Origin: a virus
Lineage: Duplodnaviria; Caudoviricetes
Virus record (IMG/VR): IMGVR_UViG_3300022719_000071
Span: 256,001-320,000 of that record
Length of the DNA stretch: 64,000 nucleotides
Reading direction: 5' to 3' (one strand)
Position 1 is the first letter of the stretch; the number at the start of each line of letters is the position of its first letter. Shown here piece after piece: positions 11,030-34,975 of this stretch. A program made the translations under genes and the position numbers. Below the pieces are notes generated by a model that was not told the DNA's origin, did no database searches, and saw only the letters and a program-made list of their open reading frames with translations.

Positions 11030-11806
11030 ATGAAACTCAAAGACTTACTACCAGACGTTCTTACTGCAACGGAGCGGTTCCGTGATGTTGTCACTCATGT
11101 AATTCTAAAGGACCATGGGGAGAACTCCTTGATCGTCGCAAAGTCGATAGATGGTTCGATTTACATCGGTGGAACCACCACGAGTGAGGTTGAAGACTTT
11201 GAGGACATAGCTTGCCTGGGAAGCCTGGATTTTCTCAAGGCATCTCTTGATGCACCGGCTATGGAGGTTGGCAGCTTGGAGTTGAACATCGACCTATCTG
11301 CTGCTGGGGACGCCAGGGTTGTCCGCTCTATCACTCTATCCGGAAAGGATGGATACAACGTATTCTACCAAGCAGTAGACCCTTTCATCAGTAAGCTGAA
11401 CAAGATTAGTGTAACCAAGGTATCCAGTTGGCCAGTCGTGTTTGCTATTGATCAAACTTTCATGACACGCTTCAACGAAACCATGAAAGTTCACGCTCGT
11501 GCTCCCAAGATTGGCACCGACGAGGACGACATATTTTTGCTCTCTTATGGCGACGGGAAGATTTCTGCTAGCTTCGGTGAGAAGGGACATCAGGTTTCAA
11601 CAACACTGACAGAAGAAGTGGAGATCACTGGAGAAGCCGACAAAGTGACGGCTTTGTTCTCAATCTCGAAGTTCAATTCCATTCTAAAACTGTTGGGTAA
11701 TAAGACTACCATTGGCTATCTAGACAGTAAGGCCATGAAGATAGAGATGAGTACCAAATACGCTGTTTACGAATTCGTTATGACTGCAAAGAGAATGAAG
11801 AAATGA
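11030..11806 (+). CDS. Probable sliding clamp (PCNA/gp45-like)
   Basis: About 258 aa immediately after the polymerase with two-fold beta/alpha pattern; position-based inference. Confidence 0.45.
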   Translation: MKLKDLLPDVLTATERFRDVVTHVILKDHGENSLIVAKSIDGSIYIGGTTTSEVEDFEDIACLGSLDFLKASLDAPAMEVGSLELNIDLSAAGDARVVRSITLSGKDGYNVFYQAVDPFISKLNKISVTKVSSWPVVFAIDQTFMTRFNETMKVHARAPKIGTDEDDIFLLSYGDGKISASFGEKGHQVSTTLTEEVEITGEADKVTALFSISKFNSILKLLGNKTTIGYLDSKAMKIEMSTKYAVYEFVMTAKRMKK

Positions 11807-15619: not shown

Positions 15620-15800
15620 AGTAGAATTGTTGAAGTCAGCAAAGGCGAATCATGGCACAGGATTGACATGATGTACCTACGTCTCGGTGAACGAGTCCTA
15701 TCCCTACACATATCGCACATCGGATGGTATAAAGATTGTGGACGTTGAAGCGTAACAGACATAAAGCCCAGGTAGTGGAAATTGAATCGTATCTCCTGAC

Positions 15801-21200: not shown

Positions 21201-21333
21201 CCGAATTTGGGATTGTAGCAAATGTTGGCTTGCTCCCGGCTCTTAACTAGTAAACAGTTTAAGACACAGAGGAATTCGATAGATACAAACGCCAGAGACG
21301 AATAATCGTTCCTGGGAAACAAGTAATAGAAAT

Positions 21334-21409
21334 GGACTCGTAGCTCAATTGGCAGAGCACCCGGCTCTTAACCCGGGGGTTGCAGGATCGTTGCCTGCCG
21401 AGTCCACCA
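21334..21409 (+). tRNA. tRNA-Lys(CTT), atypical T loop
   Basis: CT-CTT-AA; T loop ATCGTTG; CCA. Confidence 0.88.
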
Positions 21410-21494: not shown

Positions 21495-21563
21495 GGGTCG
21501 ATTGTGACTGATTATCGTTCTCACAAGGCCGTGGTCGTGGGTTAGAGTCCCACCTTACCTCTA
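21495..21563 (+). pseudogene. Degenerate tRNA
   Basis: Intact T arm GTGGG-TTAGAGT-CCCAC but broken D, anticodon and acceptor pairing. Confidence 0.55.
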
Positions 21564-21699: not shown

Positions 21700-21751
21700 A
21701 GGAGATGCAATGCTGACTTGATCAATTGGCACTCGGTTATGCAGTGACGAT

Positions 21752-21868
21752 GGGATCGTAGTTCAACGGTAGAATACTGGACTTTTACACTTCGGGGTGG
21801 CAAATTTAATTGGATGCGGCTCCGTCTAATCCAGGAGATGTGGGTTCGAATCCACGCCGGTCCCACCA
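21752..21868 (+). tRNA. tRNA-Lys(TTT) with 41-nt insertion (21788-21828) in the anticodon loop
   Basis: GGGATCG/CGGTCCC acceptor, D arm, CTGGA/TCCAG anticodon stem, CT-TTT-A[insert]A, CCA; T stem slightly irregular. Confidence 0.8.
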
Positions 21869-22142
21869 AAGCTCAATGGGCAAAGTCATGAGACACTAGT
21901 AGGAAACTGCCCGAGAAGCGTATGTGAGTCGTAGCGGTCTCTACGAACAAGCGAGTTGCGCTTGACTTACAATGGTGAACGTAATATGATTTACTTGAAC
22001 AGAATTCGAGCACGCTGAGGTAACATTCAAGCAGGATGTAGAGAAGAAGTTCTACGGTAAGTGCCGCTGTCCTGAAGCTCACATTCCAACCGAGAGGGTA
22101 ATGAAGACGTTGTGTGAGAAGCACAACCTTTAGGAGAGAACG

Positions 22143-22541
22143 ATGGCAAAGAAGACTGTCCGTAGAAAGGCTACCGATCCAAAGATGCTTACCATCAGGA
22201 AGGACATCGATCTCAGCCATTTGAATTCCAGTCCGTTATCCCACGTCATCAAAACACTTCAGGAACTTGCGGACAGCGAGGGTTGCGATCCGGACTTGTC
22301 TCACGTAGAGTTTGAATACGAGCGTGGATACTACGATGAGTTATCCATAACACTAATGGTGCACGCAGTACACGAAAGATTGGAAACTGAGAAGGAAGTG
22401 GAGAAGCGGATCGAACAGGCACGCAAGACTCGTGAGAGTAGGAAGAGAGCCAAGGAGGAGCAAAAGGCCAAGGAGATCATGGAACGTGATCGACTACTGG
22501 AAAGGTATCCATTGGACACTGTGCCACCTGTGATGGACTAA
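22143..22541 (+). CDS. Hypothetical protein
   Basis: AGGAG SD; charged C-terminal coil. Confidence 0.7.
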   Translation: MAKKTVRRKATDPKMLTIRKDIDLSHLNSSPLSHVIKTLQELADSEGCDPDLSHVEFEYERGYYDELSITLMVHAVHERLETEKEVEKRIEQARKTRESRKRAKEEQKAKEIMERDRLLERYPLDTVPPVMD

Positions 22542-22777
22542 TAAATATACATCACACGAATAGGAGGAACCCAGAATGGGAAGTACACGATTACAGATTA
22601 TCTCTGGTGTCTCCTGTTCCACAGGAAGTACCACCGTCGTATTGTATATCATATAATGCCCGGGAAAAAGCTTCGAGTGAGTGAGTGCAAGAAATGTCAT
22701 GCACAGTTCTTGCGTGAACGAGTTGAAGATGTAATCTAATGCGGTGAAAGCATTTAAGTAATTATAAATACAACTGA

Positions 22778-23972: not shown

Positions 23973-25505
23973 TCATTGCGTGTTGCTGCCTGGATCGAAC
24001 CCGGTAACGTGCATTAGGTCTTCCCCGTCAAATTGCGTTAACGGGTGATCTTCTATTGGTACACCATAACCCCCACGTGTACCTCTGCCGATCACGCTAG
24101 CGCTTGCGGTCAGAGGCTCTTCACGCATGCTCTGAAGAGCTTGTACTACGATCTTGTAGATCTTCTTCAAAAACTCCTGACGATATGCATCCGGATTGGT
24201 GGCGATGTGTGTAATTACCAGCATACGCAATACTACATCACGTATCTCTGGTGCACGCTTTTCGTAATCCGCATTTCCAATAGCACGAAACTCGATGTAA
24301 CCAGAAGGCAGTGTGGAAAAGTTGACGGAGTAGGACTTACCGTGTGGGTTGATTTTATCCAGTAGCTTGGTCATTCGTTGGAAGTCGCTTTGGTCAATAT
24401 GAACATGAGATATCAACTTTTGCGTGAACTTGACCAACACTCCAGTAGAATCTGATGATATCGTCTGTAGCTTGCCAGCACGATGAATGCGCTTCTTCAA
24501 TTCACGAAGAGTTGGCTCGGAGAACTCATTCATCTCACGACCGAACTTCTTCACGATGTGCTGGTCTCCGAGAAGAACCAGCATTTTCAGCGCATCAATT
24601 TGCTTGCCCTTGACTCCAATGTTGATGTGCAGTCCTGTATCCATTGTAGTAGCAACATTCAAACCTATGATCTTGCCATTCATGATTTGCAAGAAGTTCA
24701 TCAACTGGTCAACTCCCTCCTGAGCCTGGAAAATTGGAGAAATTGTTTCTACGCCAGCAGCACCGGATTTTGCAGTTTCATCAGCTAGAGATGCATCGTA
24801 TGTAACCGCCCAATTTTGATACTTTTGTGATAGTTCGTATGTTCTAGTTTCATCAGCAGTAGAAACCACATTGCCACTGACTTTTCCCTGAAGGTCTCTA
24901 GCAACCATGTGGTACAAAACATCTTGAGTAGCTATATTCATCGCAAGGTCATACTCCTCTTTCTCGAAGCCAACAGTAGACGTGGAAAACTCCAAATCGT
25001 TTAGCTTTCCGAACGGAGTAATCTCTTTCACATCACCATCATACACAATGTCCTCTAAAGCTTCTTCTTTGCGAGGATCAATGTTCAGGATTCTATCTTT
25101 AGGAAAAGCACGAAGCATTGCCATAAGCTGATGCATTCGATACTTCTCCTTCAAGGAATCCCAAATAGCAGCCGTAGACGTAAACGTTCCATCACCACCA
25201 GTCTCTTGTTCGTACAACTGAATTAGTCTTTCTTGAAGGATTTCGTGGTTGTCTTTTAGATTGTCGCTATCTACACTAAGAGGAACCCAAAAATGGAGCA
25301 GGTCTGAATAGGTTGTGTCACCGATTTTCCTAGTATGGTAATTTCCGTCCGGTGTTTGTCCCATGCCCTGAGTCAGATAGCTCTGAATAGCTTTCTGAGC
25401 CCCGATAAGGAAATACTCAGCCTCGAAGCCGAGTGTCATACCTGGGTCGTTTAGGGCTGCATTGATGAGCCTCTGACTGGCTTTTACGCCTTCGGTGATT
25501 TGCAT
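23973..25505 (-). CDS. Putative amidoligase-2 (phage COOH-NH2 ligase) protein
   Basis: GFEAEYF, DASL, GVETISP, TGLHINI, YSVNF, YIEFRAIG; start MQITEG after minus-strand TAAATA (25529-34). Confidence 0.75.
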   Translation of the reverse strand: MQITEGVKASQRLINAALNDPGMTLGFEAEYFLIGAQKAIQSYLTQGMGQTPDGNYHTRKIGDTTYSDLLHFWVPLSVDSDNLKDNHEILQERLIQLYEQETGGDGTFTSTAAIWDSLKEKYRMHQLMAMLRAFPKDRILNIDPRKEEALEDIVYDGDVKEITPFGKLNDLEFSTSTVGFEKEEYDLAMNIATQDVLYHMVARDLQGKVSGNVVSTADETRTYELSQKYQNWAVTYDASLADETAKSGAAGVETISPIFQAQEGVDQLMNFLQIMNGKIIGLNVATTMDTGLHINIGVKGKQIDALKMLVLLGDQHIVKKFGREMNEFSEPTLRELKKRIHRAGKLQTISSDSTGVLVKFTQKLISHVHIDQSDFQRMTKLLDKINPHGKSYSVNFSTLPSGYIEFRAIGNADYEKRAPEIRDVVLRMLVITHIATNPDAYRQEFLKKIYKIVVQALQSMREEPLTASASVIGRGTRGGYGVPIEDHPLTQFDGEDLMHVTGFDPGSNTQ

Positions 25506-25821
25506 GGGATATCCTCTTGACCTGTCAATATTTACTCCGTACATTGGAAGCACCATGAAATACAAATTCAAGTCGGTCCTGGTTGTATCCCATTCGAAAG
25601 ATGAGGAAACCTACCCCACGAGGAATGGGCGCATCTAACCAACGCTCAAGTTCAAGAGCTATATCAAGAAACCTATGATCGATGGAACTTTGAGACTGGA
25701 ACGAAAGACGACCTTATCTTGATGAAGAGACTGGAGTATGAGCTATATGGTCGTAACTACACGGTCGTTCAGCCAAAGCTTTGGCCGAAAAACTCAATGA
25801 GGAAGTCTTGAGGATGTTCAC

Positions 25822-33581: not shown

Positions 33582-34517
33582 ATGGCACTATCTGCACAGC
33601 AAGCTAATGATTTCACCGCCCTAGCGCTTCAGAATGCGCTAGACCGGGATGTTAACGACGAGATTCGAAACGCCGAGCAACAAATTCGTTCGACAATTTC
33701 TATTCGTCAGGCTTTCAAGACCTCCTTCTTCGGTTCCATTATCGGAAACCCTCCTGGTGATCCAAACTTTGTGACGCTATCGATTCGTCAGCAGCAGTTT
33801 TTCGATCACTACGTGAATCAGGGCTACTTCGTGAACATTGACCCTGAGAATGGCAACTGGCTGCTTGATTGGTCTCAAGTTGGTGGCACTCCATCTACCG
33901 TGCATCTGTACAGCATCCGCACCACTGTATCTCCTGGTGCTGTTTCTGTTGCTACAATCAATGCTATCAATGATTTCTTTGGTTCTCTGATCCCAGCAGC
34001 CATTTCGAACACAGTTCTGTCGGACACCACGCCAACATCCGGTGGTGATATTCCAGAGGCAGACTTTGGAGCACCCGACAGCGTATTCTATGAGTATCTG
34101 AGCGTCGTTCAACAACAAGACGATACTGACCATAGCTTGGCACTGAAGGACGCTATCAGAGCCTCTGGATTGGGCTACGTGGATGACACACGTGTGACTG
34201 GTGTGGGTGGTGCAGGAAACACAACCACCAACACCAATACGTTGGACATCAGCAATGGTGCTACCACCGTTACGGTGGCGGTTGGTGGAACTGGTACAGC
34301 TACGGATTTGGTGACTTCTATCAATAACAACCCAACACTACAAGCGATTAGTATCGTGGGCGACATCAATGGCCCAGATGTTCTAATCAAGAATACTTTG
34401 GGTGGAACACTTACAGTAATCAACAACGTGGGAGATGTCCTTGGTGATATATTCGGTCTCAGTTCTCCGCAAACAGGAGTGGTGACAGATAACACCGAAG
34501 TCTACAAGTTCATATGA
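33582..34517 (+). CDS. Probable virion structural protein
   Basis: TAAATA (33552) and AGGAG; G/T/N-rich C-terminal region resembling flagellin-hook/sheath inserts. Confidence 0.55.
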   Translation: MALSAQQANDFTALALQNALDRDVNDEIRNAEQQIRSTISIRQAFKTSFFGSIIGNPPGDPNFVTLSIRQQQFFDHYVNQGYFVNIDPENGNWLLDWSQVGGTPSTVHLYSIRTTVSPGAVSVATINAINDFFGSLIPAAISNTVLSDTTPTSGGDIPEADFGAPDSVFYEYLSVVQQQDDTDHSLALKDAIRASGLGYVDDTRVTGVGGAGNTTTNTNTLDISNGATTVTVAVGGTGTATDLVTSINNNPTLQAISIVGDINGPDVLIKNTLGGTLTVINNVGDVLGDIFGLSSPQTGVVTDNTEVYKFI

Positions 34518-34975
34518 GATGGTGTAAAACCATAAAGCGATCATTAGAGAAATCGTCTACTGTTATCTGGCTAGTGAACCTTAATCACATACTATGGGGT
34601 GTTTTTTTCTTGATTGAAGAAACACCAATTCCTTCCAACTTCGGTGCCACGATAGCATTCACAAATCCAGAATATCAGTCGTTGTTTGGCCTCATGTTTA
34701 TATTAGTAGCTCTTTGCTCAGTTATATCAGACTTCTTTGATGGTATTCGAGGAACCATATTGTTAATACCACAACAACTTGTTGTCACGTATGGTTGTAC
34801 TGTGCTGATGTCTGCCATATCGAATGGAGCCGTTTTCGGTAGTGAGTTCATCTTGTCTGCGTGTGTGATTTTACCTCTTACAGCTATGCACACCGTAGCA
34901 GTAATAACTAGATATGCACGTGAGCATCACGCAAAGATCATAATTAAACTTGATGAAATGACAGAAAGGATATGA
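34514..34975 (+). CDS. Multi-pass membrane protein
   Basis: About 4 hydrophobic helices. Confidence 0.6.
   Translation: MRWCKTIKRSLEKSSTVIWLVNLNHILWGVFFLIEETPIPSNFGATIAFTNPEYQSLFGLMFILVALCSVISDFFDGIRGTILLIPQQLVVTYGCTVLMSAISNGAVFGSEFILSACVILPLTAMHTVAVITRYAREHHAKIIIKLDEMTERI

Follow-up and report, generated by a model that had tools for sequence, protein, structure and literature searches.

How should a transfer RNA (tRNA) gene be read when a short insert splits its anticodon loop and the genome that carries it is that of a bacterial virus? The case considered here lies in a stretch of 64,000 nucleotides (nt), hereafter the window, which comprises bases 256001-320000 of a 360,469-base-pair (bp) IMG/VR phage record (IMGVR_UViG_3300022719_000071, Caudoviricetes) estimated to be 91% complete. 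At 21752-21868 on the plus strand (positions are those of the window unless another locus is named), we found a 117-nt tRNA-Lys(UUU) gene that runs from the acceptor stem to an encoded CCA (21866-21868) and is interrupted in its anticodon loop by 41 nt. To our knowledge, self-splicing is the only accepted route of tRNA intron removal in bacteria and their viruses. The insert might be an intron of another kind, the core of an RNA with a different role, or the mark of a broken gene. A relic that yields no working tRNA seems to us the likeliest single reading, with somewhat less than an even chance of being right.

A tRNA-Lys(UUU) gene interrupted in its anticodon loop

The gene was recognized by Rfam, by ARAGORN and by orthology. 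The Rfam tRNA model RF00005 matches from 21752 to 21865 (model positions 1-71) with 45.5 bits against a gathering score of 29, and the Infernal alignment leaves about 42 unaligned bases between anticodon-loop positions. ARAGORN misses the gene at its default settings and reports a 41-nt intron in it when introns are allowed, the setting under which it counts 43 tRNA genes in the phage genome. Together, the end-to-end Rfam match and the ARAGORN call bear out the first-pass annotation of this DNA, which had described a complete tRNA frame with a 41-nt insertion in the anticodon loop. In the register placed by enumeration and by alignment with orthologs, the 5′ exon (21752-21787, plus strand) extends through A37 and holds the 5′ strand of the acceptor stem, a D arm (GUUC/GAAU, with the loop AACGGUA and thus U at position 20) and the anticodon stem strand CUGGA, followed by C32 U33 U34 U35 U36 A37. 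The insert occupies 21788-21828 (plus strand), between positions 37 and 38, and the 3′ exon (21829-21868, plus strand) supplies A38, UCCAG, the variable loop GAGAU, the T arm, the 3′ strand of the acceptor stem, A73 and CCA. When the 41 nt are taken out, the anticodon stem regains its 5 bp (CUGGA/UCCAG) and the loop its 7 nt. The body has the U8, G18 G19, T loop (UUCGAAU), U33, A73 and CCA of a bacterial-type elongator tRNA, and its sole oddity is a bulged A at 21854 (plus strand) in the 3′ strand of the T stem, which Infernal aligned as an inserted 'a' and which is common to the orthologs.

The splice register, if there is one, is ambiguous because the two junctions, CU/UUUA and CG/UCUA (the slash marking the exon border), are alike. 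Chance, a common signal for cleavage or a degenerate duplication of the target could account for this likeness. Enumeration of the registers showed that a first exon ending at U35, U36 or A37 gives the loop CUUUUAA and one ending at C38 gives CUUUUAC, both with the Lys anticodon UUU; a Lys product is possible with an exon end at 21785, 21786, 21787 or 21788. A first exon ending at U33 or U34 gives the loop CUUCUAA, with the Arg anticodon UCU. The joined-exon junction expected for the Lys register, in an RNA of 76 nt, is CUGGACUUUUAAUCCAG, and that expected for the Arg register is CUGGACUUCUAAUCCAG.

ARAGORN picks the second register and labels the gene Arg(UCU). Read literally, its call describes a splice that switches the anticodon, in which cuts after U33 and after the last base of the insert's hairpin would join CU to UCUAA and produce a tRNA for AGA codons. 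The 3′ cut would then coincide with the 3′ end of the hairpin, the genome has no Arg(UCU) gene, and AGA is its second commonest Arg codon (9.7 per 1000). Against such a splice, all orthologs are UUU genes, and the body has U20 where the three Arg tRNA genes of the phage, Arg(ACG), Arg(UCG) and Arg(CCU), all have A. A20 is the main identity element for arginyl-tRNA synthetase in Escherichia coli, and a Lys body with C35 should serve lysyl- and arginyl-tRNA synthetases poorly. We give an Arg-producing splice very little credence. Neither A20 nor orthology to Arg tRNAs was found, every ortholog being a Lys gene; the Arg(UCU) label is thus an artefact of the register, and an automatic caller mislabels the gene. 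Because its orthologs are uninterrupted UUU genes that share its acceptor stem, D arm, variable loop and bulged T stem, the gene is, on this comparative evidence, a tRNA-Lys(UUU) and not a tRNA-Arg(UCU), as the first-pass annotation had argued from U20.

A separate concern is whether the 41 nt exist as DNA. Assembled contigs from three samples of one study (X1, X2 and X3) span the insert with zero differences and no contig skips it; the first-pass annotation had made its proposal depend on read support for the insert. The contigs concerned are X1 record 4, X3 record 20, which covers 21771-22096, and X2 record 15, which begins at 21785. Their independence is limited because all three samples come from a single study and the record itself may derive from X1; the contigs exclude a one-off misassembly and little beyond that. 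The 41 nt could be suspected of being a chimeric join since two X2 contigs stop at 21785/21786, that is, at the 5′ junction. However, the X1 and X3 contigs bridge the entire insert unchanged and the X2 contig covers it from 21785 on, and we treat the X2 break, where depth is 6-8, as a coverage gap and not a variant. An assembly artefact accordingly receives next to no weight here. At the RNA level, no run was listed for a 2.4-kb stretch, and three metatranscriptome runs contain no more than 8% of the words in a query of 301 nt.

Relatives and the origin of the insert

Relatives of the phage were reached through homologs of a neighboring amidoligase-like protein (41-64% identity) and through a pattern scan of metagenome contigs. 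Uninterrupted Lys(UUU) orthologs of the bulged-A type occur at L010 15380-15455 (minus strand), L093 8932-9009 and L096 868-944, and L094 is identical to L010 in this tRNA. The joined exons are identical to the L096, L010/L094 and L093 orthologs at 62-66 of 76 positions, and all have the same acceptor stem, D arm, variable loop and bulged A in the T stem, the pair next to the bulge covarying as U-G, G-C and C-G. None of the four orthologous genes (L010, L094, L093 and L096) contains the insert, which is one of two outcomes that the first-pass annotation had, taken together, tied to a pseudogene. The gene order Arg-Ile(GAU)-Arg(UCG)-His-Lys(CUU)-Phe-Lys...Ile(UAU)-amidoligase-like is common to the window and L010/L094, and the insertion is therefore placed on this phage's branch. 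Absence from the orthologs weakens the idea of a function without refuting it, since the relatives concerned are distant (41-50% identity in the neighboring protein) and phage tRNA inserts are patchy among relatives (PMC6784885). Searches of IMG/VR by the amidoligase-like protein or DNA polymerase B found no close relatives; the closest by protein, L007 (64% identity), is a 6-kb contig that ends before the tRNA array. When ARAGORN was run with introns allowed on about 90 fetched loci, 127 of 430 tRNAs were called intron-bearing, but these calls are unusable as background because most of them are long variable arms.

The insert is a single copy, specific to this lineage and without a match elsewhere. 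No second copy of at least 13 nt was found in the window, the 360-kb genome or the fetched loci. Cultured-phage records likewise contained no match to the insert and gave only short chance matches to the exons. In scans that were sensitive to exact patterns only, IMG/VR yielded zero matches to the hairpin arms, the 5′ exon and the T-arm/acceptor pattern, and 78 to the D-arm pattern, all of them belonging to other tRNAs or to attachment-site fragments of prophages; in 185,579 prokaryote genomes, the insert core and the T-arm pattern were both unmatched. The bulged-A type of tRNA-Lys(UUU) was also not found by pattern in these genomes or elsewhere in IMG/VR, and this lineage looks phage-specific. 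The bulged A might be an escape from nucleases or modification enzymes aimed at tRNA-Lys.

Two mobile or repetitive origins were considered and rejected. A mobile repeat, similar to a miniature inverted-repeat transposable element or a repetitive extragenic palindrome, does not fit an element present once, whose flanks (CUUUUA and CGUCUA) are alike at 4 of 6 positions and form no target-site duplication. Origin from a CRISPR array does not fit either, since the 36-nt repeat of the phage's own array (L098 15355-15840) is unlike the insert. Judged from these searches and from the predicted folds described below, the insert is not a repeated element and has no recognizable signal of the known protein-splicing systems.

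Fold of the insert and fate of the transcript

The insert is predicted to form one dominant hairpin (21793-21824, plus strand), which appears in the minimum free energy (MFE) structure, the suboptimal folds and the pair probabilities. Its arms, CGGGGU-G-GCA and UGC-G-GCUCCG, would pair as 6 bp, a G.G mismatch and 3 bp around a 12-nt loop with pair probabilities of 0.83-0.99, and on its 3′ side it borders directly on the anticodon-loop bases UCUAA. The first-pass annotation had instead drawn two hairpins, a small one and one of 8 bp; the pairs are possible, but that fold is 5.3 kcal/mol worse than the single hairpin and the probability of the 8-bp hairpin is about 0, and we have abandoned it. 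A weak 3-bp helix (U35 U36 A37 with UAA, probability 0.24) could extend the anticodon stem, with C32 U33 U34 bulged and a 5/2 internal loop. In its stack, which has about 12 layers, and in the loop letters UUUAAUU, the insert resembles a tRNA shape only faintly. Two other claims of the first-pass annotation have held: a bulge-helix-bulge (two 3-nt bulges and a 4-bp helix) is missing from the predicted folds, in which no geometry of implied cuts yields a 7-nt loop, and 41 nt without a match to a group I model is too short for a group I intron. A search of 21700-21920 against 4227 Rfam families at E <= 1 returned tRNA only, with no group I or group II intron or small ribozyme; therefore no known ribozyme is present, and we infer from length and model matches that the insert cannot splice itself. 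No promoter or terminator was found within it.

How such a gene could arise as a relic can be outlined. A tRNA-Lys(UUU) gene from a small, phage-only bulged-A lineage has gained a 41-nt hairpin insertion on this branch alone. With about 48 nt, not 7, between the anticodon-stem strands of the unspliced RNA, a transcript would be unable to read codons. The gene would have been disabled recently in an array with tRNA turnover, no mature tRNA would be made from it, and AAA codons would be read by a host tRNA. In agreement with this, the insertion is confined to one branch, has no relatives, copies or known excision signal, and sits in an array littered with tRNA fragments.

Several observations weigh against a broken gene. 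The tRNA body is undecayed, with a 7-bp acceptor stem and 21 of 21 stem pairs standard, and the interruption falls at the classic intron site, within the anticodon loop. The predicted fold of the insert is more stable than expected (z = -2.4 against 1000 dinucleotide shuffles, 1.7% of which fold as well), and the full-length MFE structure retains every cloverleaf arm, which is true of only 19% of shuffled inserts. The first-pass annotation had noted the gene as the only Lys(UUU) gene of the window; by ARAGORN it is the only one in the whole 360-kb genome, in which AAA makes up 34% of Lys codons, and every relative retains one or two Lys(UUU) genes. A non-duplicative insertion of 41 nt without a donor in the collections searched would be an unusual spontaneous mutation. 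Lastly, short tRNA inserts that do not self-splice have been documented in megaphages, where they are patchy among relatives (PMC6784885, PMC13037316).

These observations lead to a second explanation, that the insert is a mini-intron removed by proteins. The first-pass annotation had proposed either a masked tRNA that cleavage and ligation would activate or a nuclease decoy. An endonuclease would cut on both sides of it, at N/UYUA, with the hairpin projecting from the anticodon loop of the cloverleaf; the ends would be healed by the phage kinase-phosphoesterase while the cloverleaf held the halves together, and an Rnl1-like ligase would seal them into a working tRNA-Lys(UUU), by the chemistry with which phage T4 mends tRNA-Lys after cleavage by PrrC. 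We regard this as possible, though on balance unlikely. It would account for an intact body, for a structured and self-contained insert at an anticodon-loop site, and for the interruption of the genome's only Lys(UUU) gene when relatives always keep one. A precedent may exist in the 'enigmatic' introns of Lak megaphages, which are 79-93 nt long, lie at position 37/38 and have no Rfam match (PMC6784885). On the other side, the insert is missing from the four orthologs, has no second copy and is not tRNA-shaped; no endonuclease candidate was identified, and the cleavage motif amounts to the likeness of the two junctions at 3 of 4 bases. We also know of no demonstration of protein splicing of tRNA in bacteria or phages, which counts against it as well.

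The enzymes that such a route would draw on are present in part. The 360-kb phage genome encodes an Rnl1-like ligase of 442 amino acids (aa; G000 ~81806-83134, minus strand) and, about 3 kb away, a 477-aa protein of the bacterial Pnkp type that combines an AAA_33 kinase with a metallophosphoesterase (G000 ~84785-86218, minus strand). Two Rnl2-family ligases are also encoded, one beside RlaP and the other with a PHA02142 OB (oligonucleotide/oligosaccharide-binding) fold, with these other repair loci at G000 ~173.8 kb and ~42.2 kb. RtcB (PF01139) and EndA (PF01974) are absent from the genome in searches whose controls matched, as is PF08645, the phosphatase domain of T4-type polynucleotide kinase. 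Of the ligation routes that the first-pass annotation had proposed to look for, that through a kinase and Rnl-type ligases found its enzymes (Rnl1-like, two Rnl2-family, Pnkp-type and RlaP), while RtcB and the splicing endonuclease did not appear. RNA-repair kits are common in jumbo phages, where they have been explained as counter-defence (PMC7824862). Since they are common for reasons other than splicing, these genes are unspecific, and the kit would permit a cut-and-seal route without pointing to one. That a nuclease cuts at the N/UYUA junctions and the Pnkp-like and Rnl1-like enzymes of the phage reseal the ends, which would constitute protein-catalysed tRNA splicing in a bacterial system, is in our estimation improbable.

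The phage also encodes an RNA involved in tRNA maturation, which would suit a spliced product. A full-length bacterial type A ribonuclease (RNase) P RNA (RF00010, model positions 1-367) scores 168 bits against a gathering score of 100; its gene (L099:14600-14957, equal to G000 34400-34757, minus strand) lies outside the window. A virus with its own ribozyme for tRNA 5′ processing beside 43 tRNA genes seems unusual, and a quick search found no published report of one. Excision of the insert by RNase P or RNase Z was considered separately and rejected, as cuts at the base of the predicted hairpin would make the loop about 8 bases too long.

A third explanation dispenses with removal. The unspliced transcript may itself be a functional tRNA-like RNA, which would keep the acceptor, D and T arms and CCA and present the hairpin in place of a readable anticodon, and which would act as a decoy or inhibitor of PrrC-, RloC- or PARIS-type nucleases or as some other tRNA mimic. 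The conserved and processable tRNA frame with its encoded CCA would suit such a role, as would a loop that still shows CUUUUA, and phage tRNAs have been implicated in the evasion of anticodon nucleases (PMC10264068). Non-decoding RNAs with a tRNA frame do occur in the arrays of relatives: at L090 10142-10259 (minus strand), a frame scoring 43 bits has 58 structured bases instead of an anticodon arm. The tRNA cluster of phage T4 likewise keeps stable RNAs of unknown function, although two of these, rnaC and rnaD, score at most 17.5 bits as tRNA and are not comparable in form. The insert is not conserved, and the gene derives very recently from an ordinary decoding tRNA, both of which speak against a selected role for the unspliced RNA. 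We consider it decidedly improbable. Other explanations take up whatever probability remains after a relic, a mini-intron, an unspliced RNA, the Arg register and an artefact. Directly downstream of the L090 tRNA frame lies a YrlA-like Y RNA (L090:10001-10119, minus strand; 47.6 bits, below the gathering score of 69), and the two may be a pair of Ro60-linked tRNA mimics.

The tRNA array and comparison with known systems

The surroundings of the interrupted gene show an array in visible turnover, with genes gained, lost and broken up. The 5′ half of a Lys(CUU)-type tRNA (21209-21247, plus strand), itself decayed, breaks off directly after the anticodon loop, an orphan T-arm fragment (21533-21554, plus strand) resembles the 3′ half of the Arg(UCG) gene, and a D-arm-like fragment (21869-21885, plus strand; repeat family D5) lies directly 3′ of the CCA of the interrupted gene. 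Between that gene and tRNA-Ile(UAU), an orphan open reading frame (ORF) at 22143-22541 (plus strand) could encode a Lys/Glu-rich protein of 132 aa, for which no homolog was found among 5.8 billion proteins. The presence of a homolog-less ORF in the 900 bp downstream therefore marks the locus as in flux. A promoter-like sequence (TTGACT-17-TATGAT, 21962-21990) lies upstream of this ORF.

Other features of the arrays were noted in passing. At 21334-21409 (plus strand) lies a Lys(CUU)-type tRNA whose T loop, AUCGUUG, is odd and whose anticodon loop has 8 nt (ARAGORN 'ctta') unless the anticodon stem contains a C.C mismatch; the L010 ortholog (15702-15778, minus strand) has the T loop AUCGUGG and an anticodon loop of the usual 7 nt. 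Elsewhere, a tRNA with the anticodon CUA, of the amber-suppressor type (ARAGORN 'Pyl'), occurs at G000 22700-22777 (minus strand), and an 82-nt tRNA(CAU) with a hairpin variable arm at G000 11343-11424 (minus strand; equal to L098 11343-11424). The relatives carry at the head of the array, in addition to a normal Asn gene, an 84-86-nt tRNA-Asn(GUU) whose variable arm is long and class II-like (L010:16427-16512, minus strand; L093:8403-8488; L096:619-704; L089:15676-15761, minus strand; L090:11605-11688, minus strand); the present phage lacks tRNAs for both Asn and Tyr. The conserved amidoligase-like protein (PF12224, 510-530 aa) is encoded at 23973-25571 (minus strand) of the window and in L008-L010, L089 and L090; throughout this phage group its gene stands beside that of a small RF-1-domain protein and adjoins the tRNA array. 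A 212-aa ORF (L097:2009-2647, plus strand; G000 ~86.3-86.9 kb) fuses an endonuclease VII domain to a cytidine/deoxycytidine monophosphate deaminase domain.

The insert is, as far as its sequence can be compared, similar to no splicing system that has been demonstrated. Bacterial group I introns are known in tRNA anticodon loops, in cyanobacterial tRNA-Leu(UAA) and tRNA-fMet and in the tRNA-Ile of Azoarcus. These also interrupt a bacterial-type tRNA at the same loop, but at 41 nt the present insert is several-fold short of a group I intron (at least 200 nt). The intervening sequences of bacterial 23S ribosomal RNA (rRNA) are excised by RNase III without religation, the rRNA tolerating its pieces. 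They resemble the insert in being lineage-specific hairpins in a gene for a stable RNA, removed, if at all, by a host nuclease; unlike 23S rRNA, however, a tRNA cut in the anticodon loop would not be tolerated, and the stem here, of about 10-12 layers, is irregular. T4 species 1 (rnaC, 139 nt) and species 2 (rnaD, 119 nt) have a similar length and tRNA-cluster context, but they have no decoding ortholog, whereas the interrupted gene matches as an ordinary tRNA plus one insertion. The introns of archaeal and eukaryal tRNAs are, like the insert, short and sited in the anticodon loop, and their removal depends on proteins (EndA or Sen, and RtcB or Trl1; PMC4090602, PMC3400036). In contrast to these, the insert has no bulge-helix-bulge and the phage genome neither EndA nor RtcB. 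In T4 repair, PrrC cuts the host tRNA-Lys 5′ of U34, Pnkp heals the ends and Rnl1 seals them (PMC3400036). The tRNA species and the loop are the same here, and an Rnl1-family ligase and an end-healing kinase-phosphoesterase are likewise encoded. However, T4 mends one nick and removes nothing, whereas two cuts 41 nt apart would be required here; the healing enzyme also differs, being a kinase with a metallophosphoesterase, as in Clostridium thermocellum Pnkp, where that of T4 is a kinase with a haloacid dehalogenase (HAD) domain.

Among published categories, that of the 'enigmatic' phage tRNA intron comes closest. The inserts reported from Lak megaphages (Devoto et al. 2019, Table S6; PMC6784885) lie at 37/38 and hold a T-arm-like module; they 'may encode a tRNA' and recur identically across cohorts and in several tRNAs (PMC6784885). 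Similar intronic sequences have since been described from 262 jumbo-phage genomes with alternative genetic codes (PMC13037316). The insert shares with the Lak introns a setting in a large tRNA set, an anticodon-loop site compatible with 37/38, the lack of an Rfam match and a patchy occurrence. It differs from them in its length of 41 nt, in its one irregular hairpin without a T arm, and in its single occurrence in one phage, and its sequence is unrelated to theirs. Neither a Lak-type T-arm module nor a mini-tRNA was found in it, there being no second tRNA-like match, no closing pair of the G53-C61 type and no CCA. Recurrence in related genomes or other tRNAs was likewise not seen, with one copy in this genome, four of four orthologs free of the insert and no matches in IMG/VR. 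We would file the insert as a further, shorter and sequence-unrelated case of that category.

Short megaphage tRNA inserts that do not self-splice have been reported since 2019. The gene described here offers a clean case among them, with an ordinary tRNA, one 41-nt hairpin and uninterrupted orthologs, in a genome that also encodes a ligase, an end-healing enzyme and an RNase P RNA. If the insert were spliced out by proteins, the tRNA could stay beyond the reach of lysine-anticodon nucleases until it was needed. If the gene is broken, as we think likeliest, it documents a fast turnover of tRNA arrays in giant phages.

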